From Candidatus Latescibacterota bacterium (GTDB lineage: Bacteria > Latescibacterota > UBA2968 > UBA8231), in the NCBI GenBank assembly GCA_965203355.1, contig OZ241889.1:1504001-1568000 (forward strand): DNA of 64,000 nucleotides, written 5' to 3'. Shown piece by piece: positions 15,219 to 63,997 of the stretch (position 1 is the stretch's first letter; every line of letters begins with the position of its first letter). Below the pieces are notes generated by a model that ran no database searches, had not been told where the DNA came from, and saw nothing but the letters and a program-made list of their open reading frames with translations. The position numbers and the translations under genes are program-made.

Positions 15219-16220
15219 TTGTCGCTTAACTACGCATTTCGCCGCTTGGGCGTGTTCCTGCTGATCGTGTGGGCCGGGGCTACCATTAACTTCTTGATGC
15301 CTCGGCTGGCTCCGGTAAACCCCATCCGCGAGCGTCTGTTGCAGGCGGTTTCCTTTGGCGGTGCCGGCAAGACCGACATGGAGGCCGTGGTGGCCACGTA
15401 CGAGGCTCGCTTCGGGCTTGACCAGCCCCTGTGGAAGCAGTACCTGCGCTATCTCGGGGACGTGGTGCGCCTCGACTTTGGGGTTTCCATCGCCAATTTT
15501 CCGAGCCGCGCTTCCGACATTATCATGCGTGCGCTGCCGTGGACGCTTGGGCTGCTGACGACGGCGACGCTGATTGCCTTTGCTCTTGGCACGGTGCTCG
15601 GTGCGCTGCTGGCTTGGCCGCGAACGCCCGGTGCCCTGCACTACTTTGCCGCGCCTTTCTTGGCGCTGTCGGCGATTCCTTATTACTTGCTTGGACTGGT
15701 GCTCGTCTTTCTCCTAGGTTTCACCTTGCGTGCCTTTCCCCTCGGCGGCGGCTTTACCTTGGGAACGCTGCCTGGGCCGACCTGGGCCTTTGCCCTGGAC
15801 GTAATTTATCACTCCATCGTCCCCGCCCTGTCGATCGTGTTGTCGTCGGTGGGGTTTTGGGCTTTGTCGATGCGCGGTATGATGGTCACTGTCCAAGGCG
15901 AGGACTACGTCAACTACGCCGAAGCCCGGGGATTGAAGAGCCGCGACATCTTCTTCCGCTACGCCTTGCGCAACGCCCTATTGCCGCAGACTACGGCCTT
16001 GGCGCTGGCCATGGGGTACGTGGTGTCTGGGGCTGTGCTGGTGGAGGTGGTATTTGCGTATCCGGGCGTGGGCACGGTGCTGTACCGAGCCGTGCAGACT
16101 TTTGATTACTTCGTCATCTACGGCGTCGTGATCATGGTCATTTTGGCTATCGCCGTAGTGACCTTGATCCTCGATTTGGTTTACCCGCTCCTCGATCCGC
16201 GCATTGCCTACCGCCGATGA
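15219..16220 (+). CDS. Peptide/nickel ABC transporter permease (DppB/OppB-like)
   Basis: TTG start; FGLDQPLWKQY, EDYVNYAEARG (EAA loop), LDPRI terminus. Confidence 0.9.
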   Translation: MSLNYAFRRLGVFLLIVWAGATINFLMPRLAPVNPIRERLLQAVSFGGAGKTDMEAVVATYEARFGLDQPLWKQYLRYLGDVVRLDFGVSIANFPSRASDIIMRALPWTLGLLTTATLIAFALGTVLGALLAWPRTPGALHYFAAPFLALSAIPYYLLGLVLVFLLGFTLRAFPLGGGFTLGTLPGPTWAFALDVIYHSIVPALSIVLSSVGFWALSMRGMMVTVQGEDYVNYAEARGLKSRDIFFRYALRNALLPQTTALALAMGYVVSGAVLVEVVFAYPGVGTVLYRAVQTFDYFVIYGVVIMVILAIAVVTLILDLVYPLLDPRIAYRR

Positions 16221-16225
16221 CGCTC
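16193..16225 (+). repeat. 33-bp direct repeat, left copy (dppB 3' end)
   Basis: CGATCCGCGCATTGCCTACCGCCGATGACGCTC, identical to 17661-17693. Confidence 0.95.
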
Positions 16226-16252
16226 TTGCTCCGATATTGCCGGTAATACTAT

Positions 16253-16281
16253 TTGCCAATTGTGTCTTGAACTGGTAATCT
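16253..16281 (+). promoter_or_regulatory. Putative sigma70 promoter of the inserted ATPase
   Basis: TTGCCA-17 nt-TAATCT with an extended -10 TG, in the AT-rich spacer. Confidence 0.4.
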
Positions 16282-16332
16282 TTTTGTCCGGTTTAATGTA
16301 GAGTCGGGAACAAAACTGACTGACATTGCATT

Positions 16333-17688
16333 ATGACGGCTGCGCTCAAGGAAATCATTCTAGACTTTCAGGAAGAGTCGCTGGAGACCGGTGTCCCGCG
16401 GCGGGTCTCGGTGAGTGCGGTGCCGGGAAAGGCCATGGTCTGCATCGGCCCGCGACGAAGTGGAAAATCCACTTTTCTGTTTCAACTCATCCGCAAGCTA
16501 CTTGACGCTGGAATACCTCGCGACAACATCCTGTACCTGAACTTCTTCGACGACCGCCTGCGTTATCTGCAACGCGATGGGCTGTCCGCCGTGATGGAGG
16601 CATACTATTCGCTTTATCCCAAAAAAAAGAACACCCAGACGGTCCATTGCTTCTTCGACGAGATTCAGGTCGTGCCCGGTTGGGAGTCTTTTGTGGACCG
16701 GATCATGCGCACCGAGCAGTGCGAGGTGTACATGACCGGCTCGTCGGCGCAGATGTTGTCTCAGGAGATCGCGACACAGATGCGCGGACGGCCCCTTTCT
16801 TGGGAATTGTTTCCCTTCTCGTTTCGCGAGTTTCTCGACTTCAAGGGGATCGACAGTAGCGGCCCCTTGTCCGCCCGGCGACGCCTGCTGATCCAGAGCG
16901 CATTCGATCAGTACTGGGAGAGCGGCGGATTTCCCGAGGTCGCGGGTTTTGACCGCCGGCTGCGGATCAAAACTCACCAAGAGTACTGGGGCGCGATGCT
17001 GTTCCGCGACCTTGTTGAACGACACGACATCTCCCACCCCCGAGCAGTCTCTGATCTGGCTCACTGGCTGGTGGACAACATTGCTTCCCTGTACTCTGTC
17101 AACCGGCTCACTGGATACTTGAAGGCACTCGGCTATCGCGCCCCCAAGTCGGCGGTCTCCGCCTACCTGAACTGGTTTGAGGATGCCTTCTTCTTGTTCA
17201 CGGTGCGCATCTGCGACGCATCCTTGGCGCGGGCCAACGCGAACCCCAAGAAGATCTACTGCGTCGATCACGCACTGGTCGAATCGGTCTCCTCCGGCAT
17301 CCTCGTGAACACCGGCCATTTACTCGAAAATCTCGTGTTCACGGCGCTCCGTCGAGTTACGCCTGAGCTTTTCTACTACAAGTCGAAGGCCGGTCGCGAA
17401 GTGGATTTCGTCGCTTACATGGGCGACGGTGTGCGCCTATTGGTCCAAGTCTGCGAGTCCCTTGCAGACCCGCAGACCAAGCAACGGGAAGTGGCCGCAC
17501 TTCGCGATGCCATGGGCGAACTAAATTTGGGAACGAGTGTGCTCGTAACTCGTGGTGGAGCGGGCGGTCCCAGCGACGGGGAACACATTGTCGTTGACAC
17601 CGGCGAGATCGAAGTCACCGCTGCTTGGCGTTTTCTGCTCGATGTGGATTCCGCCTACGGCGATCCGCGCATTGCCTACCGCCGATGA
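16333..17688 (+). CDS. AAA_14/DUF4143 ATP-binding protein (inserted cassette)
   Basis: Walker A GPRRSGKST, Walker B FFDEIQ, TGSS, GGFPE, KIYCVD..LLENLV..EVDFV. The C-terminus DPRIAYRR is copied from dppB. Confidence 0.9.
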   Translation: MTAALKEIILDFQEESLETGVPRRVSVSAVPGKAMVCIGPRRSGKSTFLFQLIRKLLDAGIPRDNILYLNFFDDRLRYLQRDGLSAVMEAYYSLYPKKKNTQTVHCFFDEIQVVPGWESFVDRIMRTEQCEVYMTGSSAQMLSQEIATQMRGRPLSWELFPFSFREFLDFKGIDSSGPLSARRRLLIQSAFDQYWESGGFPEVAGFDRRLRIKTHQEYWGAMLFRDLVERHDISHPRAVSDLAHWLVDNIASLYSVNRLTGYLKALGYRAPKSAVSAYLNWFEDAFFLFTVRICDASLARANANPKKIYCVDHALVESVSSGILVNTGHLLENLVFTALRRVTPELFYYKSKAGREVDFVAYMGDGVRLLVQVCESLADPQTKQREVAALRDAMGELNLGTSVLVTRGGAGGPSDGEHIVVDTGEIEVTAAWRFLLDVDSAYGDPRIAYRR

Positions 17689-17693
17689 CGCTC
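17661..17693 (+). repeat. 33-bp direct repeat, right copy
   Basis: Identical to 16193-16225; contains the ATGA stop/start overlap. Confidence 0.95.
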
Positions 17694-20577: not shown

Positions 20578-20956
20578 ACGCGGGGGATGGACAGGGGATG
20601 AACCCAATTTTGTGCCGGGTGGGTCTATGGAAGAGTTTGTGGCAAACGGTACGCTCGATGCGGAATATGCACAGATCTTTCGCATCGAGAACCCAACCGC
20701 TGGTGTTGCCCTTTTCGCGCACCTATACCCGCTAGACCGCGCTGAGCGCATCCTTCCCGGCCCTCAAACGCAACGAGATGCAGGAGTTCAACGCTACGTC
20801 CTCTGCGCCCGGCCGGTCGCCCCTACTCTATCCATCTCTGTACCCTTTCCGTTACACGCTCCGTCCCTCACAGCCCGCGGCCCCTCTGAGCCGCTGTCTT
20901 GGCACGATTTTTGCCTCTTGCCGGTGCCACCGCACCCGCAACCCAAGGCATCGCTC

Positions 20957-21892
20957 ATGGCCGAATTCGATACCATCGCCAAACACCTCATCCACACCTA
21001 TCCCCGAGACTTCGCCCGCTTCGCCCTCCAACAAGACGACCTCGAAGTCCTCGACATCCTCGACACCGAACAACCCACCGTTGAAGCCCACCGCACCGAC
21101 AGCCTCATCCGCGTGCGCGTCCACGACGAGGAGGCCCTCATCCATCACGAATTTCAAACCACCGACAGCAACCCCCCCATGCCGCAGCGCATGGCCGGTT
21201 ACATCGGCCGCAGCATCGAACAGCACGGCCTGCCCATCTATGCCAACGTCATCTATCTGCGGCCCGACGCCGGCCGGCGCGACCCGGGGTATTATCTCCA
21301 AGAGCGGCGCGGCTTCCGCGTGTTGGTGCAATACCAAGTGATTCGGCTGAGTGAGCTAGACGGCCAACAGACGCTCGATGCGGGGGATGCGGGTTTGCTT
21401 CCGTTTGCGCCGTTGATGCAGCGGCCGACGGGTGTGGATGCGGCAGCATGGCTGCGCCGGTGTGTGAATCGGGCGCAACAGATGCCCATGGCCGCGCTCG
21501 CCAAGGCCGATTATCTGGTCCATCTTGCGATTTTGAGCGGATTGGTGTATAAATCAGAAACGATTATGACCATCATCTCGGAGGCGACCATGTACGAATC
21601 GTCGGTAGTGCAGTATTTCACGGAAAAGGCGCTTGAGCAAGGCATCGAGCAAGGCGTTGAGCAAGGCATTGAGCAAGGCATTGAGCAAGGCATTGAGCAA
21701 GGTGGCCGAGAACGCGCGATTGAATACCTGCTCGACGTGCTGGCGCTTCGCTTTGGGCTGGCCGCGTCGGCTCCATTGGCCGTCCGCTTAGGGGCTATTG
21801 ACGATGTGCAGCACCTCAAGCAGTTGCATCGAGCGGCCATACAGGTGCCCAGTCTCGAAGCCTTTAGGCACTTGCTAGACGGCCTCGAGTAA
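20957..21892 (+). CDS. Rpn/YhgA-like (PD-(D/E)XK) putative nuclease
   Basis: MAEFDTIAK...RTDSL...HHEFQT..MPQRM; (EQGI)n repeat; C-terminal LALRFG...LKQLHRAA. The ORF-track start at 20306 is an unlikely extension. Confidence 0.8.
   Translation: MAEFDTIAKHLIHTYPRDFARFALQQDDLEVLDILDTEQPTVEAHRTDSLIRVRVHDEEALIHHEFQTTDSNPPMPQRMAGYIGRSIEQHGLPIYANVIYLRPDAGRRDPGYYLQERRGFRVLVQYQVIRLSELDGQQTLDAGDAGLLPFAPLMQRPTGVDAAAWLRRCVNRAQQMPMAALAKADYLVHLAILSGLVYKSETIMTIISEATMYESSVVQYFTEKALEQGIEQGVEQGIEQGIEQGIEQGGRERAIEYLLDVLALRFGLAASAPLAVRLGAIDDVQHLKQLHRAAIQVPSLEAFRHLLDGLE
21635..21703 (+). repeat. 12-bp tandem repeat GAGCAAGGCATT (~6 copies) encoding EQGI
   Basis: Seen directly in the sequence; typical of Rpn-family C-termini. 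Confidence 0.9.
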
Positions 21893-21894
21893 AG

Positions 21895-25786: not shown

Positions 25787-26037
25787 AATATCTCCTTGTG
25801 GTGTAGCGGTTGTAAGGGTCGATGCTCGTGAAAATCGGTCGCGGTACGGTTGAGGTCGGGCTTGGGGTGCCGGAGTTCAGGCGGGGCGGGGCGACCCGTT
25901 CAACGGGAGTAAAGCTAAATTGCAAAACGTACCACGACCTGAAAATCAGGCTGACGAGGATTGTTATTTTCTGATCCCTGCTCAGCCTCATTGTATCGGA
26001 CGCTCGTCGGCTGGTTGAGTTTCTTTCTTGGCGTTTC

Positions 26038-31766: not shown

Positions 31767-33710
31767 ATGCAAACGGAGCGAATTGGCTTGGAGGTGACTC
31801 GGCGGGCACTCGTATTGGGCGCGGGTGCAGCGCTATTCTTGAATCTGGCTTGTCCCTACTCAGTGCTCGTCCTGCAAAACGCGGGCCTGACCTCGGATTA
31901 CATTGCGGCTGGCGCGATGATGGTCTTTTTGGTGCTCGTCGGGCTGGTCAACCCCCTGCTGAAAGCCACAGTCAAGTCTTGGGCACTGCGCACGAGCGAA
32001 CTGGTGGTCGTGTACGCGATGATGGTCGTGGCGTCGGCGATTCCCACGTGGGGATTGGTGACGAACCTGTGCCACATCCTCACCCGCCCGTTCTACTACG
32101 CCACGCCAGAAAATCGCTGGACCGAGCTGATTCAACCGCTGATTCCCGCTTGGCTCGCGCCGGACGAACCTGAAGCCGCGCGTTTCTTCTACGAAGGACT
32201 GCCCGCGGGGATGGGCATTCCGTGGGGGGCTTGGCTGGTGCCGCTTATGGCGTGGGGCAGCGCGATGCTGGCGGTCTATCTGCTGATGATCGCCACGATG
32301 GTCGTCTTCCGGCGGCCTTGGGTCGAACAGGAGCGGCTGGTCTTTCCGCTGGCGCAGGTGCCCTTGGAAATGCTGCGCGGCAACGACGAGGGCATTTTCC
32401 CACAGTTGTTTCGCAATCCGCTGATGTGGGTCGGGTTTGCGCTGCCCTTTGCCATCCAAATGTTGGACGGGCTGAACCACTACTTCTTTTACGTGCCCGA
32501 GGTGCGGCTGGTGTTCGATCCGCTGATGCTGTTCCGCGATAGCGTACGGCTGCACATCTTCGTCAACTTCGCCATTATTGGCGTGGCGTACTTCCTCAAC
32601 CTCAACGTGGCCTTCTCGGTGTGGTTTTTCCACTTGTTGAGCCGCTGCCAGACCGGGGTTTTCAACGTCATCGGCTTTGAGGTCAAAGGGCACAATGAGG
32701 CACTGACGGGTTCTTCGGTGGCCCTGTCGCACCAAGGGATGGGGGCGATGCTGGTGCTAGTGGGGGCGATTTTGTGGACGGCGCGAGGTCACTTGCGCCA
32801 AGTGTTCAGCGCGGCGTTTAAGCGCGGGGTCCAAGCCGACGATGGCGACGAGATTCTCTCGTACCGGGTGGCCGTGTGGCTGTGGATTGTCTGCGCGGCT
32901 TACTTCCTCGGTTGGCTGATGCTGAGCGGGGTGCCGGTGGTGGCTGCGGTGGTATTTTTCGGCGGGGCGTTTGTCATTTTCTTGGCCATTGCGCGGGTCA
33001 TTGCCCAAGGTGGCGTGGGCTTCACCTCTTCGACGATGCTGCCGCAGCCCTTTGCGGTCTATACCTTGGGCACGGATGTCATCGGCTGGAAGGGGCTGGC
33101 GTCGATTAGCCTGAGTTATTCGTGGGCCGCTGAAATGCGTACCACGGTCATGGCTTCCACGGCCAACGCGCTCAAGCTGGCGCACGGGCATGGGGCCAAT
33201 CACCGCCGCCTGTTCTGGGGGCTGGTTATTGCGGTCGTCATCGGCATGATGGGGGCTTTCTGGATCACGCTCTATTTGAACTACACGCACGGCGGGATCA
33301 ATCTGCGCCAGTTCGGGGTGCCGACGCTGGCCTATCGCTTTTTGGAGGACAAGATTCACAATCCCGTCGGCTGGGATCACGTCCGTCCTCGGCTGCTGTT
33401 TACGGGTGTGGGCGCGGCCTTAATGGGCGGGCTGATTTACATGCAGCATCACTTTCCGTGGTGGCCGTTGCACTACATCGGGCTGCCGGTGAGCGACAGT
33501 TGGGTCATGGGGGTGGCGTGGTTTTCGGTGTTTTTGGGCTGGTTGGGCAAGGCCGTGGTCTTCAAGTTCACAGGTACGCGCGGCTACCGCGCCTACAAGC
33601 CTTTCTTCGCCGGGCTGATCGCCGGGCAGCTTTTAGGGGCGGCACTGTGGATGGTGATCGACTTTTGCCTGGGCGAGGTGGGGAATGTGGTGTACGTGGG
33701 GGTGCGATGA
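31767..33710 (+). CDS. Polytopic membrane protein, DUF6785/DUF6784-like (OPT-related)
   Basis: Many TM helices; WVEQERLVFPLAQVP, WWPLHYIG and PFFAGLIAG motifs shared with 48525-50429. Family name recalled, not verified. Confidence 0.7.
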   Translation: MQTERIGLEVTRRALVLGAGAALFLNLACPYSVLVLQNAGLTSDYIAAGAMMVFLVLVGLVNPLLKATVKSWALRTSELVVVYAMMVVASAIPTWGLVTNLCHILTRPFYYATPENRWTELIQPLIPAWLAPDEPEAARFFYEGLPAGMGIPWGAWLVPLMAWGSAMLAVYLLMIATMVVFRRPWVEQERLVFPLAQVPLEMLRGNDEGIFPQLFRNPLMWVGFALPFAIQMLDGLNHYFFYVPEVRLVFDPLMLFRDSVRLHIFVNFAIIGVAYFLNLNVAFSVWFFHLLSRCQTGVFNVIGFEVKGHNEALTGSSVALSHQGMGAMLVLVGAILWTARGHLRQVFSAAFKRGVQADDGDEILSYRVAVWLWIVCAAYFLGWLMLSGVPVVAAVVFFGGAFVIFLAIARVIAQGGVGFTSSTMLPQPFAVYTLGTDVIGWKGLASISLSYSWAAEMRTTVMASTANALKLAHGHGANHRRLFWGLVIAVVIGMMGAFWITLYLNYTHGGINLRQFGVPTLAYRFLEDKIHNPVGWDHVRPRLLFTGVGAALMGGLIYMQHHFPWWPLHYIGLPVSDSWVMGVAWFSVFLGWLGKAVVFKFTGTRGYRAYKPFFAGLIAGQLLGAALWMVIDFCLGEVGNVVYVGVR

Positions 33711-33783
33711 ACGGCCGCGGCTCAGAGAAGTTAGATGCCCGCGTTACAGGGCAACCACCCAGAGGGCGATGAACGACCGCGAC

Positions 33784-34512
33784 TCAGAGGATTTGGATGC
33801 CCCATTCAGCACACCGCGCTTTCACACGCGCAGCCGGTTCTAAGCTGATGAGGGCCCCTTCGACCGCTTTGTCGGGCTGCTGCCGCCGCACCAGTTCGAC
33901 CTTGTCGGCAAATCGATCCACCTCTTCGACCTTGCAGGCGGCCGACTTCACCTCAAAGACCAGCAGCGAACCGTTATCGATCAGAATATCGACTTCGTAG
34001 GTTCGTCCGGCCGGCCCGACTACCCCCTCCTCATCCGCTAGCTTCTGCCGCAGCCGTATGTTGTCGGCGGATAGGTCTTGCCGCTTCAGCCCAAAGCGCA
34101 ACGCCCCGGCCACCACGTCCTCCAACTTCCTACCGGCCCGCCGTTGGAATCCCCCGACCGTCAGATCGAGTTTATCGGTTCTATCTTTTATTTCGGCCGT
34201 CTGCTGTTTCATCTGCTCAAGCTGCTCATCGACTTTTTCAAATCGCTCATCAACTTTTTCAAATCGCTCATCGACTTTTTCAAACCGCTCATCGACTTTA
34301 TCAAACCGCTCGTTGACCTCCGAGCGGAATTGACCCAATTCGCCGCGGAGGGCATGTAACTCAGCGAGCACGGTGGCCACTTCCTTTTTGGTGGCAAACG
34401 CTTCAATGAACGCCGTATAGGCGCGCTGCTCCAACGCCGGGTGCCGTTTGAGCAGGGCCGGCAATTGCTTTTCGAGCGTCTCCAATAATTCTTCATCCGT
34501 TAAAAGAGCCAT
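33784..34512 (-). CDS. Coiled-coil protein with C-terminal PD-(D/E)XK-like domain
   Basis: AGGAGG RBS; (DERFEKV)n heptads; YEVDILI...VFEVKS motif. Confidence 0.75.
   Translation of the reverse strand: MALLTDEELLETLEKQLPALLKRHPALEQRAYTAFIEAFATKKEVATVLAELHALRGELGQFRSEVNERFDKVDERFEKVDERFEKVDERFEKVDEQLEQMKQQTAEIKDRTDKLDLTVGGFQRRAGRKLEDVVAGALRFGLKRQDLSADNIRLRQKLADEEGVVGPAGRTYEVDILIDNGSLLVFEVKSAACKVEEVDRFADKVELVRRQQPDKAVEGALISLEPAARVKARCAEWGIQIL
34228..34311 (-). repeat. 21-bp tandem repeat x4 encoding the ERFEKVD heptad
   Basis: Units of ATCGACTTTTTCAAATCGCTC with 1-2 mismatches. Confidence 0.9.
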
Positions 34513-35759: not shown

Positions 35760-35777
35760 GTCGTCGTCTTCGTCAAA

Positions 35778-48524: not shown

Positions 48525-50429
48525 ATGGCCGCGCTGCGCTTAGCCGCCCTCATCATCGGCATCACGGTCGCAAGCGGGTGGTTGCTCCAGCGCGTCGAGT
48601 TGCTGTACAACGGTCCGCATTTGGCCGGGGCCGGGAGTGCGCCCGGGGCCCAGGTTTTTCTCGCCGTGCCCATAGGGGTTTTGGCCGCCGTTGCGCTAAT
48701 GCGTCGCTTGCTCGGGCCGGGGGATCGGGCGGTGCTTTACGCCGCACTGGTCATCGGGGTGTCGGCGACCGCTTCCGGCCTGATGCACCGGTTTTTGCCG
48801 GGCTTGGTGACGGGTTTTTACGGAGGTTTTGCCCAGCCAACGGCCCCCTATTATCGCTTTTTGCAAGTCGTCCCGGCTTGGCTGGTGCCCGGCGGTCCGA
48901 ATGAAGCGCCGGCCATCGGAGCATTTGAAGGCGGCGCGGCCGTGCCGTGGGGGGCCTGGCTGTGGCCGTTGGCGATGTGGAGTGTGTTTTTCGGTGCGTT
49001 TTTTCTGACCTGCTTCTGCTTGGTGTGGCTATTGCGGCAACGCTGGTTGGAGACCGAGCGGCTGGGATTTCCGCTGCTGGAGGTTCCTCGCGCCCTCATT
49101 GCCGGAGACCTGTTTGGCCAGCGGCTGTTTTGGTGGGGCGCGTTGGTGCCGGGGGTGTTGTTGGGGATCAATGGCTGGCACCACTACGCGCCGTCCGTGC
49201 CCGCGATTCCCACAATTTTGTACATGGAGCATTTTCTGCTCGACGATCCGTGGAAAGCCATGGCTCCTTTTGAGTCGCCGTTCCACTTTGAGTTTGTCCC
49301 CCTGTTGGTGGGGGCGGCGTTTCTCGCTCCCGTGGAGGTGTCGTTCAGCACGTGGTTTTTTTATTTGCTCACCCGCGTGCAGTTGCTGGTGGCCCATTTC
49401 CTCGGACGCTCGGAATATCGCGGCGATTTCATTCCCGGGCACGGATCGCCGTGGCTAGATTGGCCGAGTCACTTTCCCTTTTTTATGACGCAGGCGCGTG
49501 GCGGCTTGCTGTTTTTGGGGCTGTTCAGTCTGTGGTCGGCGCGGCGGGCCCTGGCCGCGGCCATCTCTTGGCGCAGTCCGGCGACGTGGGGGCTGGTGAT
49601 TGGGCTGCTGGTGCTGTGGGCGTGGACTACGGCTTTGGGGGTGCCGCCGCTGATGGGCATTGCGGCCCTGGTGCTGGTGTTGCTGTTGGCGTTGACGTTT
49701 GCGCGGCTGCGGATCGACGGAGGCTTGCCCATTGTGGGGATGCCGCAGATCGTGGGCTATCTGTTCTTCGTGGTCTTGGGAACCGGCGCTGGGCATTTTG
49801 CCGACGAGACCTACATGGGATTTGGCTTCTTGGCGGTGTTTGGCTTTACGATGATTGGCCTCTGGCCCGCCTTGCAATTTGAGGGGCTGAAATTGGCCGA
49901 GATTCACGGCGTGTCGCCGCGCCGCTTGATTTGGGGGATGGCTTTGGGATTGGCCGTTGGGTTGGGGGCCGGCTATGTGTTTTCGCTGGAAGCGATCTAT
50001 GAGCACGGGCTGTTCGCCTTGCAGGAACAGGGCGGGGCGCGGGCCGAAGCACGCATTGGCCGCTACTACAACTATTTGTTCAAAGACGCGGGCACCGTGG
50101 ATGGGGGCACGGACTGGGTGCGCTTGGGATTTCACGCGGGCGGGGCGGGCTTTACCTATTTTTTGGCGTTGATGCGCCAACACTTTCTCCGCTGGCCCTT
50201 GCATCCAATGGGCTTTGTGTTTGGCACGGGTTTTGGCTGGCTGGTGTGGGGGTCGGTGTTGTGCGGCTGGCTGTGTAAGTGGTTGGCGGTGCGCTACGGC
50301 GGAGCGCAAACCTACCGGCGGGTCATGCCGTTTTTCTTGGGGATGATTTGCGGCGAGGTCGCCATGCGGCTGGTGTGGGCTGCGGTCGCGCTGTTGCAAG
50401 GCGAAATGGGAGGCGGATACCGACCGTGA
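48525..50429 (+). CDS. Polytopic membrane protein, DUF6785/DUF6784-like
   Basis: WLETERLGFPLLEVP, WPLHPMG and PFFLGMICG motifs; paralog of 31767-33710. Confidence 0.7.
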   Translation: MAALRLAALIIGITVASGWLLQRVELLYNGPHLAGAGSAPGAQVFLAVPIGVLAAVALMRRLLGPGDRAVLYAALVIGVSATASGLMHRFLPGLVTGFYGGFAQPTAPYYRFLQVVPAWLVPGGPNEAPAIGAFEGGAAVPWGAWLWPLAMWSVFFGAFFLTCFCLVWLLRQRWLETERLGFPLLEVPRALIAGDLFGQRLFWWGALVPGVLLGINGWHHYAPSVPAIPTILYMEHFLLDDPWKAMAPFESPFHFEFVPLLVGAAFLAPVEVSFSTWFFYLLTRVQLLVAHFLGRSEYRGDFIPGHGSPWLDWPSHFPFFMTQARGGLLFLGLFSLWSARRALAAAISWRSPATWGLVIGLLVLWAWTTALGVPPLMGIAALVLVLLLALTFARLRIDGGLPIVGMPQIVGYLFFVVLGTGAGHFADETYMGFGFLAVFGFTMIGLWPALQFEGLKLAEIHGVSPRRLIWGMALGLAVGLGAGYVFSLEAIYEHGLFALQEQGGARAEARIGRYYNYLFKDAGTVDGGTDWVRLGFHAGGAGFTYFLALMRQHFLRWPLHPMGFVFGTGFGWLVWGSVLCGWLCKWLAVRYGGAQTYRRVMPFFLGMICGEVAMRLVWAAVALLQGEMGGGYRP

Positions 50430-52396
50430 CGGCTAGCGAACTGACCAGTTACCGCGACCTGATGAAGCCCCCGACGCGCTTCCGCGAGGGCTTTACCATC
50501 CGCACTGTGGCCGGGGCGTTCTTCGTCGGCTTTATCATGATGCCCGGTGCTATTTACATGGGCCTGATTGCGGGTGCATCGCTCGGCGCGGCTGCCGAGT
50601 GGGTGACCATCATCCTGTTTTCCGAACTGGCGCGGCGTTCCTTTTCCGCGCTGACGCGCCAAGAAATTTACCTGATCTACTACATTGCCGGCGGCTTGGC
50701 CGGCGTCATTGGCGGCACCATGCTGGCCGGGGGGCCGTTTGGACAACTCGTGTGGAACCAGTACCTCGTGCAGTCGCAGGCCGCGGCTGGTTTTGGCATT
50801 GCCGAGCACATCCCGGAGTGGGTCGCGCCGCCGATAGATTCCGATGCGCTGATGGGGCGCAGCTTTTTGCACCGGGCGTGGATCCCGCCCATGGTCGTGC
50901 TCGTTGCGTCGCAGTTTTTGTCGCGGGTCGAGTGGTTCACGCTCGGCTACATCCTCTTTCGCATCACGTCCGATGTGGAGCGTTTGCCCTTTCCGTTGGC
51001 GCCCGTCGCCGCGCAAGGGGCGACCGCGCTGGCCGAGAGCGATGAGGAGCGGGATAGTTGGCGCTGGCGGGTTTTCTCGGTGGGCATGGGAATCGGGTTG
51101 CTGTTCGGCGCGGTATACGTGGGTTTGCCGGCACTGACCGGATTGATCGCCAGCGATCCCATCGTCCTGCTGCCCATCCCGTGGATCGACCTGACGCGCA
51201 CGACAGAGACCATTCTGCCGGCTGCGCCCTTGGGTATTGGCACGGACTTGGGCCTAGTGTTGTTGGGCATGGTGCTGCCGTTTTGGATCGTCGTTGGCAC
51301 GTTTGCCGCGGCCATGGTCCACGCCTTGGGCAGTCCGATTCTCTACCACGCTGGCATGTTGACGCACTGGCGGCCGGGCATGGACGCGATCCTGACGAAC
51401 TTCGCCAACGACATTGACGTGTGGATGAGCGTGTACATTGGCGCGGGTGCGGCTGTGGGCGCGATTGGCTTGGTCCACGCCGTGCTGTCGGTGCGGGCCT
51501 CGCGCCGTCAGGGCGGACATCGCCCGTTGCAGGATACGCCGGTCGGCCGGGGCGACTTCCCGCTGTGGATGGCGATTGGCGGATACGTTCTATCGACGCT
51601 GGCGATGATCTGGCTCTGCGTGTTGTTGCTCGAAGACGACGAGTTTCCGCTGATCTTTTTGCTGCTTTTTGGCTTTGTGGTGACGCCGGTGATTTCGTAT
51701 GTCAATGCGCGCATGGCCGGGTTGACCGGACAGTTGGTCAGTTTTCCGTTGCTGCGCGAAGGTGCTTTTATTTTGAGCGGGTACAAAGGCATTGATATAT
51801 GGTTCGCGCCCATTCCGTACTCCGATCACGGCCGGCGCGCCCAGCTCTTCCGCGAAGTGGAGCTGACCGGGACGCGCTTCTCGTCGATTCTCAAGGCCGA
51901 GCTGTTGCTGTTGCCGCTGAGCTTGGTCTGCGGTTTTGTGTTTTGGTCGCTGGTCTGGCAGATGGAACCCATTCCCTCGCCGACCTTCCAATACGCGCAG
52001 ACGTATTGGCACCTGATCGCGCTGCGCCAGTGCTTGTGGTACTCGGCGACGTTGGGCGGGGAAACGCTGTTTGATCAGGCGATTAAGGGCTGGTGGATCT
52101 TGGGGAGTTTTGTGATGGCCGGGGGGCTGTTTGGGGTTATGTCGTGGTTGGGGTGGCCGATTTCGCTGGTGTACGGGTTTGTGCGCGGCCTTGGGGGCTT
52201 GCCGCATTTGCTGATCCCGGAGATGGCCGGGGCCCTGTTGGCCCGCTATTGGCTGGAGCCGCGCTTTGGCGTGCAGCAATGGCGGCAATACGCACCGGTG
52301 TTGTTGGCTGGATACGCTTGCGGCATGGGCTTGATCGGCATGTCGGCGGTGGCCATTGCGTTGATATCTAAATCGGTGACGCAGTTGCATTATTGA
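50426..52396 (+). CDS. OPT-superfamily-like membrane transporter
   Basis: GTG overlaps the upstream stop; FREGFTIRTV, DVERLPFPLAPV motifs; many TM helices. Confidence 0.7.
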   Translation: MTASELTSYRDLMKPPTRFREGFTIRTVAGAFFVGFIMMPGAIYMGLIAGASLGAAAEWVTIILFSELARRSFSALTRQEIYLIYYIAGGLAGVIGGTMLAGGPFGQLVWNQYLVQSQAAAGFGIAEHIPEWVAPPIDSDALMGRSFLHRAWIPPMVVLVASQFLSRVEWFTLGYILFRITSDVERLPFPLAPVAAQGATALAESDEERDSWRWRVFSVGMGIGLLFGAVYVGLPALTGLIASDPIVLLPIPWIDLTRTTETILPAAPLGIGTDLGLVLLGMVLPFWIVVGTFAAAMVHALGSPILYHAGMLTHWRPGMDAILTNFANDIDVWMSVYIGAGAAVGAIGLVHAVLSVRASRRQGGHRPLQDTPVGRGDFPLWMAIGGYVLSTLAMIWLCVLLLEDDEFPLIFLLLFGFVVTPVISYVNARMAGLTGQLVSFPLLREGAFILSGYKGIDIWFAPIPYSDHGRRAQLFREVELTGTRFSSILKAELLLLPLSLVCGFVFWSLVWQMEPIPSPTFQYAQTYWHLIALRQCLWYSATLGGETLFDQAIKGWWILGSFVMAGGLFGVMSWLGWPISLVYGFVRGLGGLPHLLIPEMAGALLARYWLEPRFGVQQWRQYAPVLLAGYACGMGLIGMSAVAIALISKSVTQLHY

Positions 52397-52401: not shown

Positions 52402-52540
52402 GTCAGCCGCGCCAGGCTCGGCCGAGATCAAATGCGCGTTTGACCCCGCGACTTTTGTGGCCGACGACCGCGTAGTACGGCACGAGATCGCAGCCAAAGC
52501 CGCGCTTGAAAAAGGCGATGCTCGGCCTGTTAGTGCCGAC
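52402..52540 (-). repeat. Degenerate duplicate of the GNAT gene 3' end
   Basis: 139 bp matching 53777-53915 with 7 mismatches (manual count). Confidence 0.95.
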
Positions 52541-52733
52541 GGAACCAGCCTACAAAACGTTACCCAAAGGCACCATCCCTGTATCCTCCAACCCCCGGCG
52601 ACCTTCCTTTTGCTGTCGATGTAAAAAGGCCGAACTCCCTGCGGGGCAAGCCAAAATACAATCCATACGCGGCCTTGGCACAGGCTTTGCCTACGCAACG
52701 TAAGCCGATGACACCCCAACCCGCCGAGGTGCC

Positions 52734-53711
52734 ATGCCCCCCATCGACGCTCTCACCAAACACTTCGTCCAGACCTACCCCCACCACTTCCTCCAATTCA
52801 CCTTTCAACGCGACGACATCCAACTCGTCAAAATCCTCCCCACCGAACAAACCACCGTCGAAACCCGCCACCTTGACACCCTTCTCAAAGTCCAAATTGA
52901 TGGCCAACCCTCCCTCGTTCACTACGAATTCCAAACCACCGACAGCACCCCCTCCATGCCCCGCCGCATGGCCAGCTACATCGGACGCCTCATCGGCCAA
53001 TCCGGCCTTCCGGTCTATGCCCACGTCATCTATCTCCGTCCCGACGCTGGTAAAAATGATCCGGGCAGTTACATCCAAGAGCATCCCTTGTATCCCATAC
53101 GCATTCACTACGCCGTTCTCCGCCTCGCCGACCTCCCCGGCGAAATCGTCCGCGATGGCCGCTTATTCGGCCTGCTGCCCGTAGCCACGCTGATGCAGCC
53201 GCCGCTGGGCACGCACCGCGACCAATGGCTGACCGAGTGCATGGCCATGACGCGCGCGCTTCCGCTAGACTCGTCAGCCAAGGCCAACATGGCGTTGGGA
53301 TTGGCTTTTTACAGCAGCTTAACGTATGATAAGCAGCACCTTTTCACCCTTTTGGCTAAGGAGCGTCTCATGGACATTCTCAAAGAATCCGAGTTTGCGC
53401 GCGACTTTTTAGATATGCTGCGGGAGGAGTTCGGGGACGAACTTAGGAGACAAGCTGAGGACGAAATCAGAGGACAAGGCATTGAGCAGGGCCGAGAGCA
53501 AGGCATTGAGCAAGGCATTGAGCAGGGCCGAGAGCAAGGCATCCGCCACAGCATCCAAGCCGTGCTGGAGCTGCGTTTCGGTGCCGGTGCTGCCCAAGCC
53601 TTCGCCGCCCGCTTGGCGTCCATTGACGACGTACAGCGTCTCGAGCACTTGCATCGCGTTGCCGTGCAGGCGTCGAAACCCGAAGAAGTAAGCCGCCTGC
53701 TAGACGACTAG
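52734..53711 (+). CDS. Rpn/YhgA-like putative nuclease (paralog of 20957-21892)
   Basis: HLDTLL..VHYEFQTTDSTPSMPRRM..VIYLRPDAG..DPG; (EQGI/EQGR)n repeat. Confidence 0.8.
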   Translation: MPPIDALTKHFVQTYPHHFLQFTFQRDDIQLVKILPTEQTTVETRHLDTLLKVQIDGQPSLVHYEFQTTDSTPSMPRRMASYIGRLIGQSGLPVYAHVIYLRPDAGKNDPGSYIQEHPLYPIRIHYAVLRLADLPGEIVRDGRLFGLLPVATLMQPPLGTHRDQWLTECMAMTRALPLDSSAKANMALGLAFYSSLTYDKQHLFTLLAKERLMDILKESEFARDFLDMLREEFGDELRRQAEDEIRGQGIEQGREQGIEQGIEQGREQGIRHSIQAVLELRFGAGAAQAFAARLASIDDVQRLEHLHRVAVQASKPEEVSRLLDD

Positions 53712-53777
53712 TCCAATCGCTGCCCACCTCACGACAGCCCAGTCCCACCGCAGAGCTGGGGCCTTCGTCTCTCCTCG

Positions 53778-54761
53778 TCAGCCGCGCAAGGCTCGGCGGA
53801 GATCAAATGCGCGCTTGACCCAGCGACTTTTGTGGCCGACGACCGCGTAGTACGGCACGAGGTCGCAGCCAAAGCCGCGCTTGAAAAAGGCGATGCTCGG
53901 CATGTTAGCGCCGACAAAATCGAAGTGCTGGTGGACGGCTGTGTTGCAGTACTGCCAGTACAACAGCGAGATCGCTCCCGTGTGGTTGTAAGCGGGGTCG
54001 GCTCCGGCGGCCCAGGCATAGGTGGTGTCGAATCCCCGGACAAAGGCGACGATCGCGGCTGGCCCATCTGAGGAGGCGATTTCGTACGCTTGGGCTAAAC
54101 CAGCCGCTAAAGCGGCGGCGACAAAGCGCTCAGCCAAGGCCGCGGCGATAGGGGGGCTGTCGGCTTGGTTGGCGTAGATGGCTTCGTACTGCCGCCGAAA
54201 CAGCGCGACATCGCTGGTGGGCCGCAGTTGATAGCCAAGTTTTTCAGCCTTGCGAATGGCGGTGCGCGTGCGGCGCTCAATGCGCTCCCAGCGTGCGTTG
54301 TCGTCGCCGAGCGGCAGCCGATAGGTATAGCGCAGGTGGGCGTCCCAGCCCTGCCAAGTGAAAGGGCGCACATCGGCGATAGCCGGCGCGTGGACTAGGA
54401 AGACGCGGTCGTAGTGCTTGGCGAGATGGGCGAGCAGATGCGAGCAAGCGCGGTGTTGGGCTGCTTCGGCTTTGGCCGGTCCTTTGCTAGCGACCGGGGC
54501 GAGGAGTAGGCCGGTGTAGGGCGTCAGCGCTGGGGTTTCGAGGCGGTAGAGACCGAGGCGACGGCGAACCAAGCCGCTGATACCGGCGACGAGGCGGCCG
54601 TTGCGGTAGCAGCCGAGGCGGTGGACTTGACCGCCGGTGGCGGCCGCCGCACAGCGCAGCCACGCGCTGGTGGAAAATACCGTACCGCCGATGGCTTGGC
54701 GGACGAAGCCGTCCCAAGCGGTGTCGTCGGCGACGAGGCGGATTTCAAAGGTGTCGGCCAC
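53778..54761 (-). CDS. GNAT family (FemAB-like) acetyltransferase
   Basis: WDGFV..GTVF...W, RTAIRKA, FDFVGANMPSIAFFKRGFG motifs. Confidence 0.82.
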   Translation of the reverse strand: MADTFEIRLVADDTAWDGFVRQAIGGTVFSTSAWLRCAAAATGGQVHRLGCYRNGRLVAGISGLVRRRLGLYRLETPALTPYTGLLLAPVASKGPAKAEAAQHRACSHLLAHLAKHYDRVFLVHAPAIADVRPFTWQGWDAHLRYTYRLPLGDDNARWERIERRTRTAIRKAEKLGYQLRPTSDVALFRRQYEAIYANQADSPPIAAALAERFVAAALAAGLAQAYEIASSDGPAAIVAFVRGFDTTYAWAAGADPAYNHTGAISLLYWQYCNTAVHQHFDFVGANMPSIAFFKRGFGCDLVPYYAVVGHKSRWVKRAFDLRRALRG

Positions 54762-61140: not shown

Positions 61141-61162
61141 CGCAACCGAGGGAAGCGACATC

Positions 61163-62758
61163 ATGCGCATCGAAGTCTATGACTCCACGCTGCGAGACGG
61201 TGCCCAAGCCGAGGGCATTTCCTATTCGCTAGAGGACAAGCTGCTGATCGCGCAGCGGCTCGACGCGCTGGGGGTCGATTACATCGAAGGGGGCTGGCCC
61301 AATCCGACCAATCCCAAGGATCTGGCTTTTTTTCAAGAAGTGAAGCAGCTAGGGCTGAAGGCGCAGGTGACGGCCTTTGGCAGTACGCGCCGGGCTGGTG
61401 TGGCTCCGGCCCAAGACGCGACCTTGAACACGCTGCTGCGAGCCGAGACCGACAGCGTTTGCATCTTTGGCAAGAGCTGGACCTTGCACGTCGTCGAGGC
61501 GCTCAAGACGACGCTAGCAGAAAATCTACAGCTAATCGGGGACTCGGTCGCCTATCTGGTCGCGCATGGCCGCGAGGTGATTTACGACGCCGAGCATTTT
61601 TTCGATGGCTATAAGGCCGATGCCGATTACGCGGTCGAGACGCTGTTGGCTGCCGAGCGCGGTGGAGCGCGGATTTTGGTACTCTGCGACACGAATGGCG
61701 GCACCCTGACCAGCGAGATGGGCCAGATCGTCGAGGCGATCAAAGCGCAGATTGGCATTCCTTTTGGCATCCACGCGCACAACGATGCTGGCGTCGGCGT
61801 GGCCAATGCGCTCGTTGCCGTAGAACGGGGCGCGGTGCAAGTGCAAGGGACCTTCAACGGCTATGGCGAGCGCTGCGGCAACGCCAACTTGTGCGCGATC
61901 TTGCCCAACTTGGAACTGAAGATGGGCTACCAGACGGTGGGCCGCGACAATCTCGCGGGCCTGATGGGCTTTTCGCGCTTCCTCAGCGAGATCGCCAACG
62001 TCTATCACGATCACCGGCAGCCGTATGTCGGCGAAAGCGCATTCGCTCACAAGGGCGGCGTCCACATCGACGCCATGACCAAGAACCCGCGCTGCTACGA
62101 ACACATCGATCCCATAGCCACCGGCAACGAGCGGCGGTTCTTGGTCTCCGACCAAGCGGGTGGCGCGACGATTGTCAGTAAGCTGCGGCGATTTTTGCCC
62201 GACATAGAGAAGCGGGATCCGCTGGTGGGGCGGGTTTTGGAGCGGGTCAAGCAGTTGGAGCACGAGGGCTATCAGTTCGAGGCAGCCGAGGGGTCGTTTG
62301 AGCTGCTGGCGCGGCGAGTCCAAGGTACGTACGAGGATGTATTCACGCTGATTAACTTCCGCACGATCAATCGCCGGATCCGGGAACACGCCGAAGAAGC
62401 CGAGGCCATTGTCAAGGTCGCTGTTGGCGCGGCCGAGTACCATACGGTTGCGGCCGGCGATGGCCCGGTCAACGCGCTCGACCAAGCACTGCGCAAGGCC
62501 CTGGAACAGGAGTTTCCCGCGCTCGAGCAGGTGCATCTGGCGGATTACAAGGTGCGGGTGTTGTCGAGCGGCGACGGGACCGCCGCCAAGGTGCGGGTGT
62601 TGATCGAGTCGTCGGACGGCAAAGACGTGTGGGGTACGGTGGGGGTTTCGGAGAACGTGATCGAGGCGAGTTGGATCGCACTGGCCGATAGCTTGCACTA
62701 CAAATTGATGAAAGACGCGCTGGCTGCGCGGGCGGTCGGCGCGACCGGAACGGATTGA
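61163..62758 (+). CDS. cimA: Citramalate synthase
   Basis: YDSTLRDGAQAEG, IEGGWP, FGKSW, DAEHFFDG, HKGGVH and WGTVGVSENVIEASW motifs. Confidence 0.92.
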   Translation: MRIEVYDSTLRDGAQAEGISYSLEDKLLIAQRLDALGVDYIEGGWPNPTNPKDLAFFQEVKQLGLKAQVTAFGSTRRAGVAPAQDATLNTLLRAETDSVCIFGKSWTLHVVEALKTTLAENLQLIGDSVAYLVAHGREVIYDAEHFFDGYKADADYAVETLLAAERGGARILVLCDTNGGTLTSEMGQIVEAIKAQIGIPFGIHAHNDAGVGVANALVAVERGAVQVQGTFNGYGERCGNANLCAILPNLELKMGYQTVGRDNLAGLMGFSRFLSEIANVYHDHRQPYVGESAFAHKGGVHIDAMTKNPRCYEHIDPIATGNERRFLVSDQAGGATIVSKLRRFLPDIEKRDPLVGRVLERVKQLEHEGYQFEAAEGSFELLARRVQGTYEDVFTLINFRTINRRIREHAEEAEAIVKVAVGAAEYHTVAAGDGPVNALDQALRKALEQEFPALEQVHLADYKVRVLSSGDGTAAKVRVLIESSDGKDVWGTVGVSENVIEASWIALADSLHYKLMKDALAARAVGATGTD

Positions 62759-62763
62759 GTGCT
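62728..62763 (+). repeat. 36-bp direct repeat, left copy (cimA 3' end)
   Basis: GCGGGCGGTCGGCGCGACCGGAACGGATTGAGTGCT, identical to 63962-63997. Confidence 0.95.
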
Positions 62764-63096
62764 CAAAGCAAGGAGCAAGACGTAGAATGTAAGATCGGCG
62801 ACCTCACGGTGTGTCTCACAGGTGATTACGATACTAAAGTTGCCGACTAATTCCATCGAATAGCATTTAGCCGAGATAGAAGCCGTTTCTCGCTTCGTCT
62901 GTGCTTCGGACGTCTAGACATATTGTCCTTGCGAGTCTGTTCAAGAGGTCGGATACTCTATCATCGTCCGTTGTAGCCGATCTTACAGCCACGGGCAACC
63001 AGCGAGTGGGATGATGGTGCTCAGCAAGCTGTGGCGATTTTTGCAAAATGATGGTAGGAAAGAGCTAAAAAAGAAGTAAACAGGAGCATCAAACTT

Positions 63097-63390
63097 ATGG
63101 CATCTCTTACTCTCAGAAAGGCCGTCGAGGCCGCCTTGGGGCACTTTGCAGCCAACGCCGATTTATTGGGGGCAACCGATCCTCAAGATGTTACATTTGA
63201 AGAAGCCGAATTATCGGAAGACGAGGCGTATTGGTATATAACTTTGGGCTATCCTACCAAAAAGAGAGTGCAAGGCTTTGTGGAACCTTTCCTCTATGAG
63301 CAAAAATACACTATTTTTGTAATTGACGGCGAGGCGGGAACTCTGCGGTCCTTAAAGATGAGATCAGATGTCGAATCCACTCTGCTCTGA
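63097..63390 (+). CDS. Small hypothetical protein, probable antitoxin partner
   Basis: AGGAG RBS; 97 aa; low GC; overlaps the PIN gene. Confidence 0.65.
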   Translation: MASLTLRKAVEAALGHFAANADLLGATDPQDVTFEEAELSEDEAYWYITLGYPTKKRVQGFVEPFLYEQKYTIFVIDGEAGTLRSLKMRSDVESTLL

Positions 63391-63877
63391 ACTAGCACAT
63401 CGCTACCGCACAGCAGGAGTCCTTGTAGATACGAATATTCTTCTTCTTCTTTTTGTCGGCTCGGTTCAGCGTCGCTTGATAGAACGATTCAAGAGGACTA
63501 GTGCTAGAGGTTTTGCGGCGAGAGACTACGATCTTTTGACGAGCTTTTTGAAACTTTTTGACAATCGAGTCGTCACTACGCCTCATATTCTCACTGAAGT
63601 AAGCAATCTCGCCGGACAACTGGGTTCCCAAAAACAGCGATTCTTTTCGTATTTTGCCAAAGGTATTTCCCAGTTAATAGAACATTGTGAGTCTAGCGAA
63701 AACTTGGCACAAATAGAATCTTTTGTAAAATTCGGCTTGACAGATGCCGCTATCATCAACTTGGTGAAGGGCCAATATCTAGTACTCACGGATGACTTTC
63801 GTCTATCCAATTACTTGGGCAAGCAGGGCGTTGACGTAATCAATTTCAATCACCTTAGATTTGCCAGTTGGCGTTGA
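63368..63877 (+). CDS. PIN domain protein (VapC-like)
   Basis: VLVDTNIL, TTPHILTEV, GLTDAAI and LVLTDDF motifs. Confidence 0.85.
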   Translation: MSNPLCSELAHRYRTAGVLVDTNILLLLFVGSVQRRLIERFKRTSARGFAARDYDLLTSFLKLFDNRVVTTPHILTEVSNLAGQLGSQKQRFFSYFAKGISQLIEHCESSENLAQIESFVKFGLTDAAIINLVKGQYLVLTDDFRLSNYLGKQGVDVINFNHLRFASWR

Positions 63878-63961
63878 TACTATATCTCGAAAAAGGAATG
63901 TGGCAATGAACATACTAAACGACGGCAACATTTGCTCGGCGAAAAGGTTGCAAGCCACCGT

Positions 63962-63997
63962 GCGGGCGGTCGGCGCGACCGGAACGGATTGAGTGCT
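63962..63997 (+). repeat. 36-bp direct repeat, right copy
   Basis: Identical to 62728-62763. Confidence 0.95.

Follow-up and report, generated by a model that had tools for sequence, protein, structure and literature searches.

Insertion of restriction-modification (R-M) genes with a long duplication of the target sequence was reportedly first described by Nobusato et al. in 2000. In the parts of a later survey drawn on here, such an insertion is recognised as an indel relative to a related genome, with flanking repeats of more than 30 bp, an insert of less than 20 kb and no other mobile element (Furuta, Abe & Kobayashi, 2010; PMC2853133). The same parts report the pattern for all R-M types and in several phyla, sometimes overlapping the 3' end of a gene; the mechanism is left open there and double-strand breakage is the only proposal (Furuta et al., 2010; PMC2853133). 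In a further paper, of which one portion is used here, the mode is stated to be recognised for R-M systems 'and other DNAs' (PMC3457768). A literature search found no toxin-antitoxin cassettes with this scar and no mechanism proposed after 2010. Here we describe four small gene cassettes in a 64,000-nucleotide stretch of the genome of a Candidatus Latescibacterota bacterium (contig OZ241889.1, positions 1,504,001 to 1,568,000; "the window"), each lying behind a host gene and closed at its far side by a duplicate of that gene's tail. It was concluded that the four cassettes belong to the general long-target-duplication mode and not to its R-M subset.

The original prediction, made from the window alone, had named four repeat pairs that bracket accessory cassettes behind host genes. 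All four were recovered with a repeat finder and by position-by-position comparison (Table 1). One copy of each pair is the 3' end of an intact gene, each repeat is found exactly twice in the window, and the claim that the four are unrelated in sequence was borne out. The inserts are 0.7 to 1.4 kb long and have a G+C of 0.455 to 0.587, compared with 0.60 to 0.69 in the flanks and 61.3% for the window. The predicted lengths of 33, 139 and 36 bp stand, but the repeat given as 87 bp or more extends to about 170 bp. Its far copy has lost about 40 bp and about 12 bp internally and carries one base change, and its host copy ends two codons short of the native stop. The host gene was expected to be left whole. 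This holds for genes 1, 3 and 4, but in the oxidoreductase gene (host gene 2) the final two native codons are gone and a new TAG is supplied by the cassette edge. At site 1 the ATGA stop/start overlap of two permease genes falls inside the repeat; at site 3 the far copy abuts the end of a convergent 705-aa membrane-protein gene (50279-52396); at site 4 the far copy ends exactly at the ATG of argJ (named by homology to contig L001), as does the empty junction of L001. As in the definition of Furuta et al. (2010), we found empty sites in relatives, repeats of more than 30 bp that align to one copy there, inserts of less than 20 kb, no integrase or transposase and no tRNA target. None of cassettes 1 to 4 carries both an R and an M gene, the combination on which the R-M search of those authors relied.

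Table 1. Repeats, cassettes and host genes at the four sites (window positions; G001, G040 and G041 are relatives introduced in the text; ORF, open reading frame)
Feature	Position	Strand	Remarks
Host gene 1 (intact), ABC-transporter permease (Dpp/Opp type)	15144-16220	+	Pfam BPD_transp_1, 7.5e-32
Repeat 1, host-end copy	16193-16225	+	33 bp, exact; last 8 codons, stop and 5 nt; single copy in G001
Cassette 1	16226-17660	+	G+C 0.567; ORF 16333-17688, AAA_14 + DUF4143 ATPase (Pfam)
Repeat 1, far copy (pseudo-tail)	17661-17693	+	33 bp, exact; contains ATGA; cassette ORF stop 17686-17688, downstream permease start 17685
Host gene 2, Gfo/Idh/MocA oxidoreductase	34572-35759	+	Pfam GFO_IDH_MocA; C-termini compared with G001, G041 and G040
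Repeat 2, host copy	35585-35755	+	about 170 bp; last 87 bp (35669-35755) identical to 36475-36561 of the far copy
Cassette 2	35756-36444	-	G+C 0.513; DUF5615 gene 35778-36116, DUF433 gene 36113-36337, about 110 bp upstream
Repeat 2, far copy (pseudo-tail)	about 36445-36561	+	two internal deletions; native last two codons and stop come after
Repeat 3, far copy (acetyltransferase pseudo-tail)	52402-52540	-	139 nt, 7 mismatches
Cassette 3	52541-53776	+	G+C 0.587; ORF 52734-53711, 325 aa, Rpn-like (weak assignment), (I/R)EQG repeats
Repeat 3, host copy	53777-53915	-	3' end of Acetyltransf_6 gene 53778-54761 (-) (Pfam)
Host gene 4 (intact), citramalate/isopropylmalate synthase family	61163-62758	+	Pfam HMGL-like, HCS_D2, LeuA_dimer
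Repeat 4, host-end copy	62728-62763	+	36 bp, exact; last 10 codons, stop and 5 nt
Cassette 4	62764-63961	+	G+C 0.455; 62764-62844 remnant of older cargo, 97-aa ORF 63097-63390, 169-aa PIN-like ORF 63368-63877
Repeat 4, far copy (pseudo-tail)	63962-63997	+	36 bp, exact; ATG of argJ (63998-64000) directly 3'

The window was compared with G041 (a single 4.52-Mb contig; nucleotide identity about 93%), G001 (the genome of contig L001, about 89%), G048 (about 87%), G004 (about 75%) and the further relatives G040, G050, G052, G042, G043 and G028. Empty orthologues, which the original prediction had asked for, were found for all four cassettes, each with a single tail copy and no scar. G001 is empty at sites 1, 2 and 3, where its alignments to the two flanks overlap by 37, 116 and 141 bp and thus hold one copy of each tail, and in L001 the synthase stop at site 4 leads directly to argJ. 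G004 is empty at sites 1 and 3, G041 and G048 at site 2, G048 at site 3 too, and the metagenome contig L251 at site 2. The orthologue of host gene 1 adjoins the next permease gene in G001 and G004. When the protein of host gene 4 was searched, 593 of 594 matched stretches encode a relative; in the best 80 of the 594, which were kept, the L001 protein is 88% identical and others are 76 to 80% identical.

All four cassettes are old and occur at the same site and junction in one to five other species; they are not recent events of this genome, as the original prediction had them. Cassette 1 is at the same junction in G048 within 4.1 kb of collinear DNA (87%), its repeats eroded by 11- and 15-bp deletions, and at the same site in G041, where the transporter operon around the insertion has decayed. 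G040 shares the left junction of cassette 2, but its toxin gene is broken and the pseudo-tail is missing. Cassette 3 is found with both repeat copies at the same site in G050, G052, G042 and G043 and partially in G028 (five of the 75 genomes of the family, at E ≤ 1e-60). The window, G041 and G048 have the first bases 3' of the host gene at site 4 in common. The cargo of G041 and G048 there is 1.7 to 1.8 kb long and encodes a Fic/DOC protein and a weak HEPN-like protein; the window retains only 81 bp of this cargo before the PIN-like pair. In G048 a 58-bp piece of the synthase tail lies behind the Fic/DOC cargo, and about 22 kb further the last 180 bp of the same PIN-like gene are followed by a decayed 40-bp tail piece and argJ. 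Site 4 is most simply read as a single old event that duplicated about 95 bp, after which the pseudo-tail received further insertions and individual lineages underwent deletions of their own. Cassette 4 demonstrates that the present cargo can differ from the cargo that arrived with the duplication. For these four cassettes it would have been wrong to read empty sites and repeat identity as signs of recent insertion.

The cargo is mostly, though not solely, made up of defence or toxin-antitoxin genes. The label AAA/DUF4143 for cassette 1 was confirmed by Pfam (AAA_14 and DUF4143), and the ATPase matches the PADLOC candidate system PDC-S01 (3.6e-98). The DUF433/DUF5615 label of cassette 2 also holds: DUF5615, a predicted PIN-like toxin, matches at 4.2e-25 (88.2 bits) and DUF433, a predicted antitoxin, at 8.4e-27 (93.2 bits), both above the Pfam cut-off. 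The two genes overlap by 4 nt, and by sequence the cassette is predicted to be a type II toxin-antitoxin pair of the DUF433/DUF5615 kind. The Rpn-like label of cassette 3 gains a weak similarity to TIGR01784, but the score is below the cut-off of 52.1 bits and Pfam gave no match. ORFs 52734-53711 and 20957-21892 score 16.9 and 26.3 bits, and the match covers only model positions 197-251, the C-terminal part with the EQG repeats; neither ORF gives an above-threshold match that takes in the N-terminal nuclease core. Homologues of the Rpn-like protein are about 50% identical, and one source names them 'predicted transposase YdaD'. A D...EFQ motif was seen by eye in the Rpn-like ORFs, and we take it to fit the Rpn (YhgA-like) family. 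For the pair in cassette 4 the PIN label agrees with the names of homologues of the 169-aa protein ('PIN domain-containing protein' or 'FCF1', 52 to 58% identical) but not with any family model: the 97-aa and 169-aa proteins have no match in Pfam, NCBIfam, PADLOC or PDB. The idea that only toxin or nuclease modules travel in this way did not survive the comparison with relatives. The same scars surround the genes of a secreted PD40/TolB-like protein in G001 and of a DUF6338 membrane protein in G041.

The ORF of cassette 1 is without a stop of its own. It reads into the far copy of repeat 1 and stops at the duplicated ATGA. Of the 17 homologues that were retrieved, most terminate in ...WRFLL plus two to five residues; the window protein and its closest homologues have an extension of 12 to 15 residues that is read from the pseudo-tail. 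In G048 the 15-bp deletion is in frame and the ORF still ends at the same ATGA. The cassette gene has probably taken over the translational coupling of the downstream permease gene, to judge from the arrangement of the reading frames.

Single-locus trees were compared with the distribution of filled and empty sites. In the site 3 flank tree (1.35 kb) the filled window groups with G041, which is without cassette 3 (support 91/95), filled G043 groups with empty G001 (82/90), and empty G048 groups with filled G050 and G042 (100/100). Cassette 2 is present in the window and G040 only, despite a Gfo gene tree of the form ((window, G041) 100/99, G001) 88/94 in which G040 and G048 lie outside. The distribution leaves two readings: clean loss of the cassettes, three times or more (as the alternation implies for cassette 3), or a passage of alleles between lineages through flanking homology. 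Both routes would use host homologous recombination. G041 has at site 3 another 1.4-kb insert, AT-rich by eye, which encodes the DUF6338 protein and sits at the same convergent junction. It is flanked by an exact 38-bp duplication made up of 8 nt of one gene end, the spacer and 24 nt of the other. This insert is an independent event with boundaries that differ from the 139-bp duplication of the window.

Repeat copies within one genome resemble each other more than they resemble their orthologues. The two copies of repeat 3 differ at 7 to 15 positions within a genome, orthologous copies differ at 12 to 27 between genomes, and the pseudo-copy of the window is closest to the window's own functional copy. 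The 87-, 36- and 33-bp pairs of the window show no difference between copies and differ from the orthologous tails at 7 to 12, 5 to 7 and 1 to 4 positions, respectively; bases specific to the window occur in both copies. The exact identity stems from concerted evolution of the copies and not from youth. Of the seven differences in repeat 3 of the window, six have arisen in the pseudo-copy since the last homogenisation, and this copy has five amino acid differences from the functional tail. This is as expected for decay of a duplicate in place; another pattern would be expected of a tail taken from a functional gene at a different locus.

The statement that no integrase, transposase or terminal inverted repeat is visible was confirmed. 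Pfam found no recombinase, integrase or transposase domain in the cassettes, and an inverted-repeat search found no terminal inverted repeats spanning both ends of any of the four. The cassettes are nearly filled by ORFs and so have no space for an integrase remnant. Chance does not produce the pattern: no 25-mer direct repeat within 6 kb arose in 30 first-order Markov simulations of the window, and six runs of such repeats were observed in the window.

Independent cases in G001 and G041 bear out the claim that the same type of event recurs. G001 has a 121-bp repeat with one mismatch around the gene of a 675-aa PD40/TolB-like protein. Self-comparison of 900 kb of G041 gave 29 repeat pairs, mostly paralogous or intragenic, and five short pairs that bracket cargo. 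A 45-bp pair is the tail of an N6_Mtase/Methylase_S gene and encloses about 5 kb with AAA_21 and DUF3226, an Rpn-like gene and a HIRAN-like protein with HipA_C. A 51-bp pair, the tail of the HIRAN-like gene, surrounds an Rpn-like gene alone, and a 55-bp pair surrounds a DNA methylase; the other two of the five are the 38-bp pair at site 3 and a 70-bp pair. Scars thus occur at about one per 200 kb in the G041 sample versus four in 48 kb of the window. Of the 79 loci from a metagenome scan with the Gfo protein, 52 extend at least 600 bp downstream, and all of these are without a tail repeat of 16 bp or more, so that site 2 is no general hotspot among relatives at greater distance. No repeat of at least 18 nt flanks the homologous DUF433 cassettes at eight other loci of the family. 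The 70-bp repeat of G041, at 3922563-3924255 (contig C1; locus L133), is a gene head and not a tail; it brackets a CDP-alcohol-transferase-like gene and a 214-aa methyltransferase gene and sits at the junction of the 121-bp tail duplication of G001. In locus L141 (genome G016) a 98-nt direct repeat (2299-2396 and 3115-3212, 85% alike, 816 bp apart) lies beside, rather than around, a DUF433-type cassette, and it may be another scar of the same kind.

The cassettes are, in our judgement, probably best explained by entry through host illegitimate recombination or replication-repair, followed by a filter at gene boundaries and a long afterlife. A foreign fragment of lower G+C with a promoter and one or two genes would be joined in at a gene junction by host functions and not by a recombinase of the element. 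The join might be a template switch that re-enters the template 30 to 170 bp behind the exit point, or alternatively the fill-in of a widely staggered break; in both cases the target stretch would be placed on both sides of the cargo. Only duplications that span a gene boundary would keep both neighbours whole. With spacers of 5 to 40 bp in this genome, repeats that survive such a filter necessarily hold gene tails, and selection for boundary-spanning duplications can account for the association. The stop-codon targeting of the original prediction is unneeded, and so is a novel route; the pattern fits a known insertion class. Cargo may be biased as well: toxin-antitoxin or defence genes would punish their own loss or be useful, and other cargo between long repeats would soon be deleted. 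The junctions are ragged and cut cargo and host ORFs (the stop of the AAA ORF and two codons of the Gfo gene are lost), and the length of the duplication varies even at one junction (139 bp in the window, 38 bp in G041). The genome comparison traces the afterlife: cassettes persist through speciation, their copies are homogenised, and the pseudo-copy decays by small deletions and non-synonymous changes. Cargo is replaced in place, sites return repeatedly to a single scar-free tail, and emptied junctions are re-used. Recombination between the two repeats would be the cause of cassette loss. Ku was not found in four of four relatives, which makes a replicative template switch or another Ku-independent join likelier than classical end-joining; non-homologous end joining was rejected as a route on this ground. 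ComEC is present in four of four relatives but was also matched in 10 of 14 control genomes, and its support for DNA uptake is therefore weak.

Several points weigh against this explanation. With no Ku in four of four relatives, the simplest route by fill-in and ligation falls away. In pseudo-copy 2 the changes are concentrated towards the inner end (three events in about 37 of about 122 bp), which could also mean a tail from outside. Single-locus trees cannot separate scar-free loss from lateral exchange of filled and empty alleles. Contigs of run X20 at cassette 2 reveal no empty allele, circle or change of depth, and contigs cannot reveal rare forms. Among 14 window/G001 indels that were examined, four, with the 121-bp case of G001 among them, have long flanking repeats and 10 have none above 14 bp. 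The insert of two genes that L001 carries between leuC and leuD likewise has no flanking repeat of 22 nt or more. This mode is therefore one of several, or its repeats frequently disappear. The repeat census, moreover, rests on a sample from a relative.

A variant of the explanation, possible though rather unlikely, is that the long target duplications act as portable attachment sites without a recombinase. A single illegitimate entry would be followed by host recombination between tail copies, giving gene conversion, scar-free excision as circles and Campbell-type re-entry into any related genome with a matching gene tail, and the first duplicative join may be made by the multi-copy, putative Rpn-like nucleases. 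If this were true, defence and toxin-antitoxin cassettes would be a reversible presence/absence polymorphism across species, and addiction modules would be enriched because excision is penalised.

Other origins were weighed against illegitimate entry with a boundary filter. Campbell-type entry of small circles that already bear a host-gene tail, by a RecA-dependent single crossover, is unlikely. It would profit from repeats (33 to 170 bp) long enough for homologous exchange and from excision between them, which would yield such circles; it also agrees with pseudo-copy 2, where the outer 87 bp match the host copy exactly and the inner end does not, and with the identical junctions of cassette 2 in the non-sister species of the window and G040. 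However, the G+C of the cargo lies below that of the host, and a foreign fragment would have to carry beforehand the two convergent gene ends and the host-specific spacer of the 38-bp repeat in G041. A single crossover keeps differences between donor and recipient visible, and three pairs differ at no position; in repeat 3, five of seven differences change an amino acid and six are derived in the pseudo-copy, as decay in situ would predict. The first arrival at a site would be left unexplained. Given foreign DNA of lower G+C, the circle that had been among the proposed routes is improbable as the original entry and possible for re-entry after excision. Tandem duplications are frequent in bacteria, and a junction segment might have been doubled before foreign DNA entered the dispensable inner copy and deletions cut the remainder down to short repeats. 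This order is discussed, in the portion of the source used here, as an alternative for a similar pattern at rRNA operons (PMC3457768). Pseudo-copies do shrink through deletion, and the pseudo-tail at site 4 of G048 was later split by further insertions. We regard it as quite improbable that duplication came first, however: it takes several steps per site and leaves the insertion itself unexplained, and in all five inspected cases (window sites 1 to 4 and G001), co-directional or convergent, the near copy stops no more than a few bases from the boundary of the gene and no remnant of the head of the downstream gene is left. The two youngest cases (38 bp, exact; 121 bp, one mismatch) were short already.

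Decayed integrative elements are a very doubtful source. Their attL and attR sites would be the repeats at gene 3' ends, with addictive cargo left behind, or an integrase would act in trans on cis-mobilisable elements. Integrases at the 3' ends of tRNA and protein genes duplicate the gene end, as the consulted parts of the survey discuss (PMC2853133), and toxin-antitoxin cargo would withstand deletion. Yet no integrase gene or fragment lies within the ORF-filled cassettes, the repeats share no sequence, and two repeat boundaries at one junction (139 and 38 bp) leave no room for a fixed core. The junctions cut cargo ORFs and host genes, and the cases, at least nine in five genomes, are all 0.7 to 5 kb in size. 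Nor is it at all probable that the Rpn-like nuclease drives the duplications, with multi-copy putative PD-(D/E)XK genes breaking DNA or promoting RecA-independent joins for themselves and for other cargo. E. coli Rpn proteins are reported to promote RecA-independent recombination, and the Rpn-like genes here are multi-copy (roughly ten or more sites in G041; in G001 many copies lie at contig ends). In two cases, window cassette 3 and the 51-bp pair of G041, tail repeats enclose an Rpn-like gene and no other cargo, and the missing Ku in four relatives would suit such a process. Membership in the family is not established, however, the hidden Markov model score being under the cut-off and confined to the repeat region. 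The copies are about 70% alike and have no conserved ends, their similarity stopping at the ORF, and the other copy in the window (20957-21892) has no flanking repeat of more than 7 bp. Scars are also reported in very different groups, in the parts of the survey used here (PMC2853133), a point that would count only if those genomes lack such genes. An assembly artefact, through overlaps or strain-merging errors, can practically be dismissed. A length of 33 bp is a common assembler word length and the source is probably an assembled environmental genome, but the repeat lengths vary, one pair is imperfect, and one protein of the window is encoded on a contig of 4,171,184 bp. In run X20 the 87-bp repeat forms a unitig of depth 144.8, twice that of its flanks (73.3 and 72.2) and of cassette 2 (74.4); runs X22 and X23, from another sample and another study, contain sequence identical to the window; and orthologous filled structures occur in G048, G041, G040, G050 and G052. 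The repeats that long reads might have exposed as artefacts are real.

Other local differences were noted during the comparison. Run X1 derives from a different study and a population with about 98% identity to the window; there a contig joins 52416 to 53768, skipping 1351 out of register with the repeat, and a separate contig spans the interior of cassette 3; this may be an alternative allele at site 3. A contig of X20 joins 55184 back to 50594 (4591 back), and one side of this joint has only 32 letters; in X1, loose ends lie at 50594 and 50626. The X20 joint is probably a short repeated word and not a circle. Upstream of the first permease gene (window 15052-15074) about 700 bp that are present in G001 and G041 are missing, the deletion lying between short direct repeats (...CTGTGG and ...TTGTGG), and the gene there is probably broken in the window. 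The second Rpn-like gene (20957-21892, in window 20587-21892) has (I/V)EQG repeats from 12-bp tandem units and sits between a transporter ATPase gene and a solute-binding-protein gene. G001 has only 301 bp there. In G041 the gene stands in three tandem copies, and the permease and ATPase genes are mostly gone. The window and G048 share a gene for a 293-aa coiled-coil protein (33784-34665, minus strand, in window 33707-34670; G+C 0.543, 21-bp tandem repeats), which has no flanking repeat and in place of which G001 and G041 carry 26 bp. At 8285-8479 an 85-nt palindromic element rich in CAGTG/CACTG occurs in two copies, 73% alike and 110 bp apart, where G041 is about 160 bp shorter. About 240 bp at 25797-26035 are absent from G001 and G041, with no flanking repeat of more than 8 bp. 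In L001, the insert between leuC and leuD (2990-3732) encodes proteins of 106 and 131 aa, by eye a putative nucleotidyltransferase/HEPN pair, and a 75-aa membrane-peptide gene at 4327-4572 lies between leuD and leuB with no flanking repeat of 22 nt or more.

The findings bear on how small defence and toxin-antitoxin modules enter genomes without a mobility gene, a mode that has been without a mechanism since 2000. The lineage is a dense natural data set, with four scars in 48 kb, several apparently complete relatives at 83 to 94% identity, and junctions that are filled, empty and refilled. Such scars can outlive speciation, keep their repeats alike and allow clean loss, and a cassette gene may assume the translational coupling of the operon that it splits.

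In naturally transformable bacteria, homology-facilitated illegitimate recombination and 'minimal mobile elements' account for small cassettes between conserved genes without mobility genes; host recombination acts and alleles are exchanged through flanking homology. These models predict no long target duplication, unlike what is seen here. Integrases that insert at the 3' end of tRNA or protein genes, together with integrase-less cis-mobilisable elements, leave the gene intact with a duplicate of its tail on the far side, as here. The cassettes differ in having no integrase gene, no fixed core, tiny inserts, ragged junctions and unrelated repeats. Target-site duplications of transposons likewise double the target DNA directly on both sides of the insert, but they are typically below 10 bp, or 19 to 26 bp for IS1630, according to the consulted parts of the survey (PMC2853133); here the repeats are 33 to 170 bp long and variable, with no inverted repeats and no transposase. 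The closest match is the long target duplication of R-M systems, which has the same lack of a mobility gene, the same variable repeats of more than 30 bp that match one copy in a relative, the frequent overlap with a gene 3' end and the selfish or defence cargo. It differs from the present case in cargo, which here consists of toxin-antitoxin pairs, Rpn-like genes, one candidate defence system of a single gene (PDC-S01) and, in part, ordinary genes, and in density, with four scars within 48 kb and one cargo ORF fused to the pseudo-tail at a stop/start overlap. The insertions here are, moreover, old, cross-species and repeatedly lost without a scar, with repeats that evolve in concert. What the analysis adds is this comparative picture of age, concerted evolution, scar-free loss, junction re-use, cargo replacement and ORF fusion.

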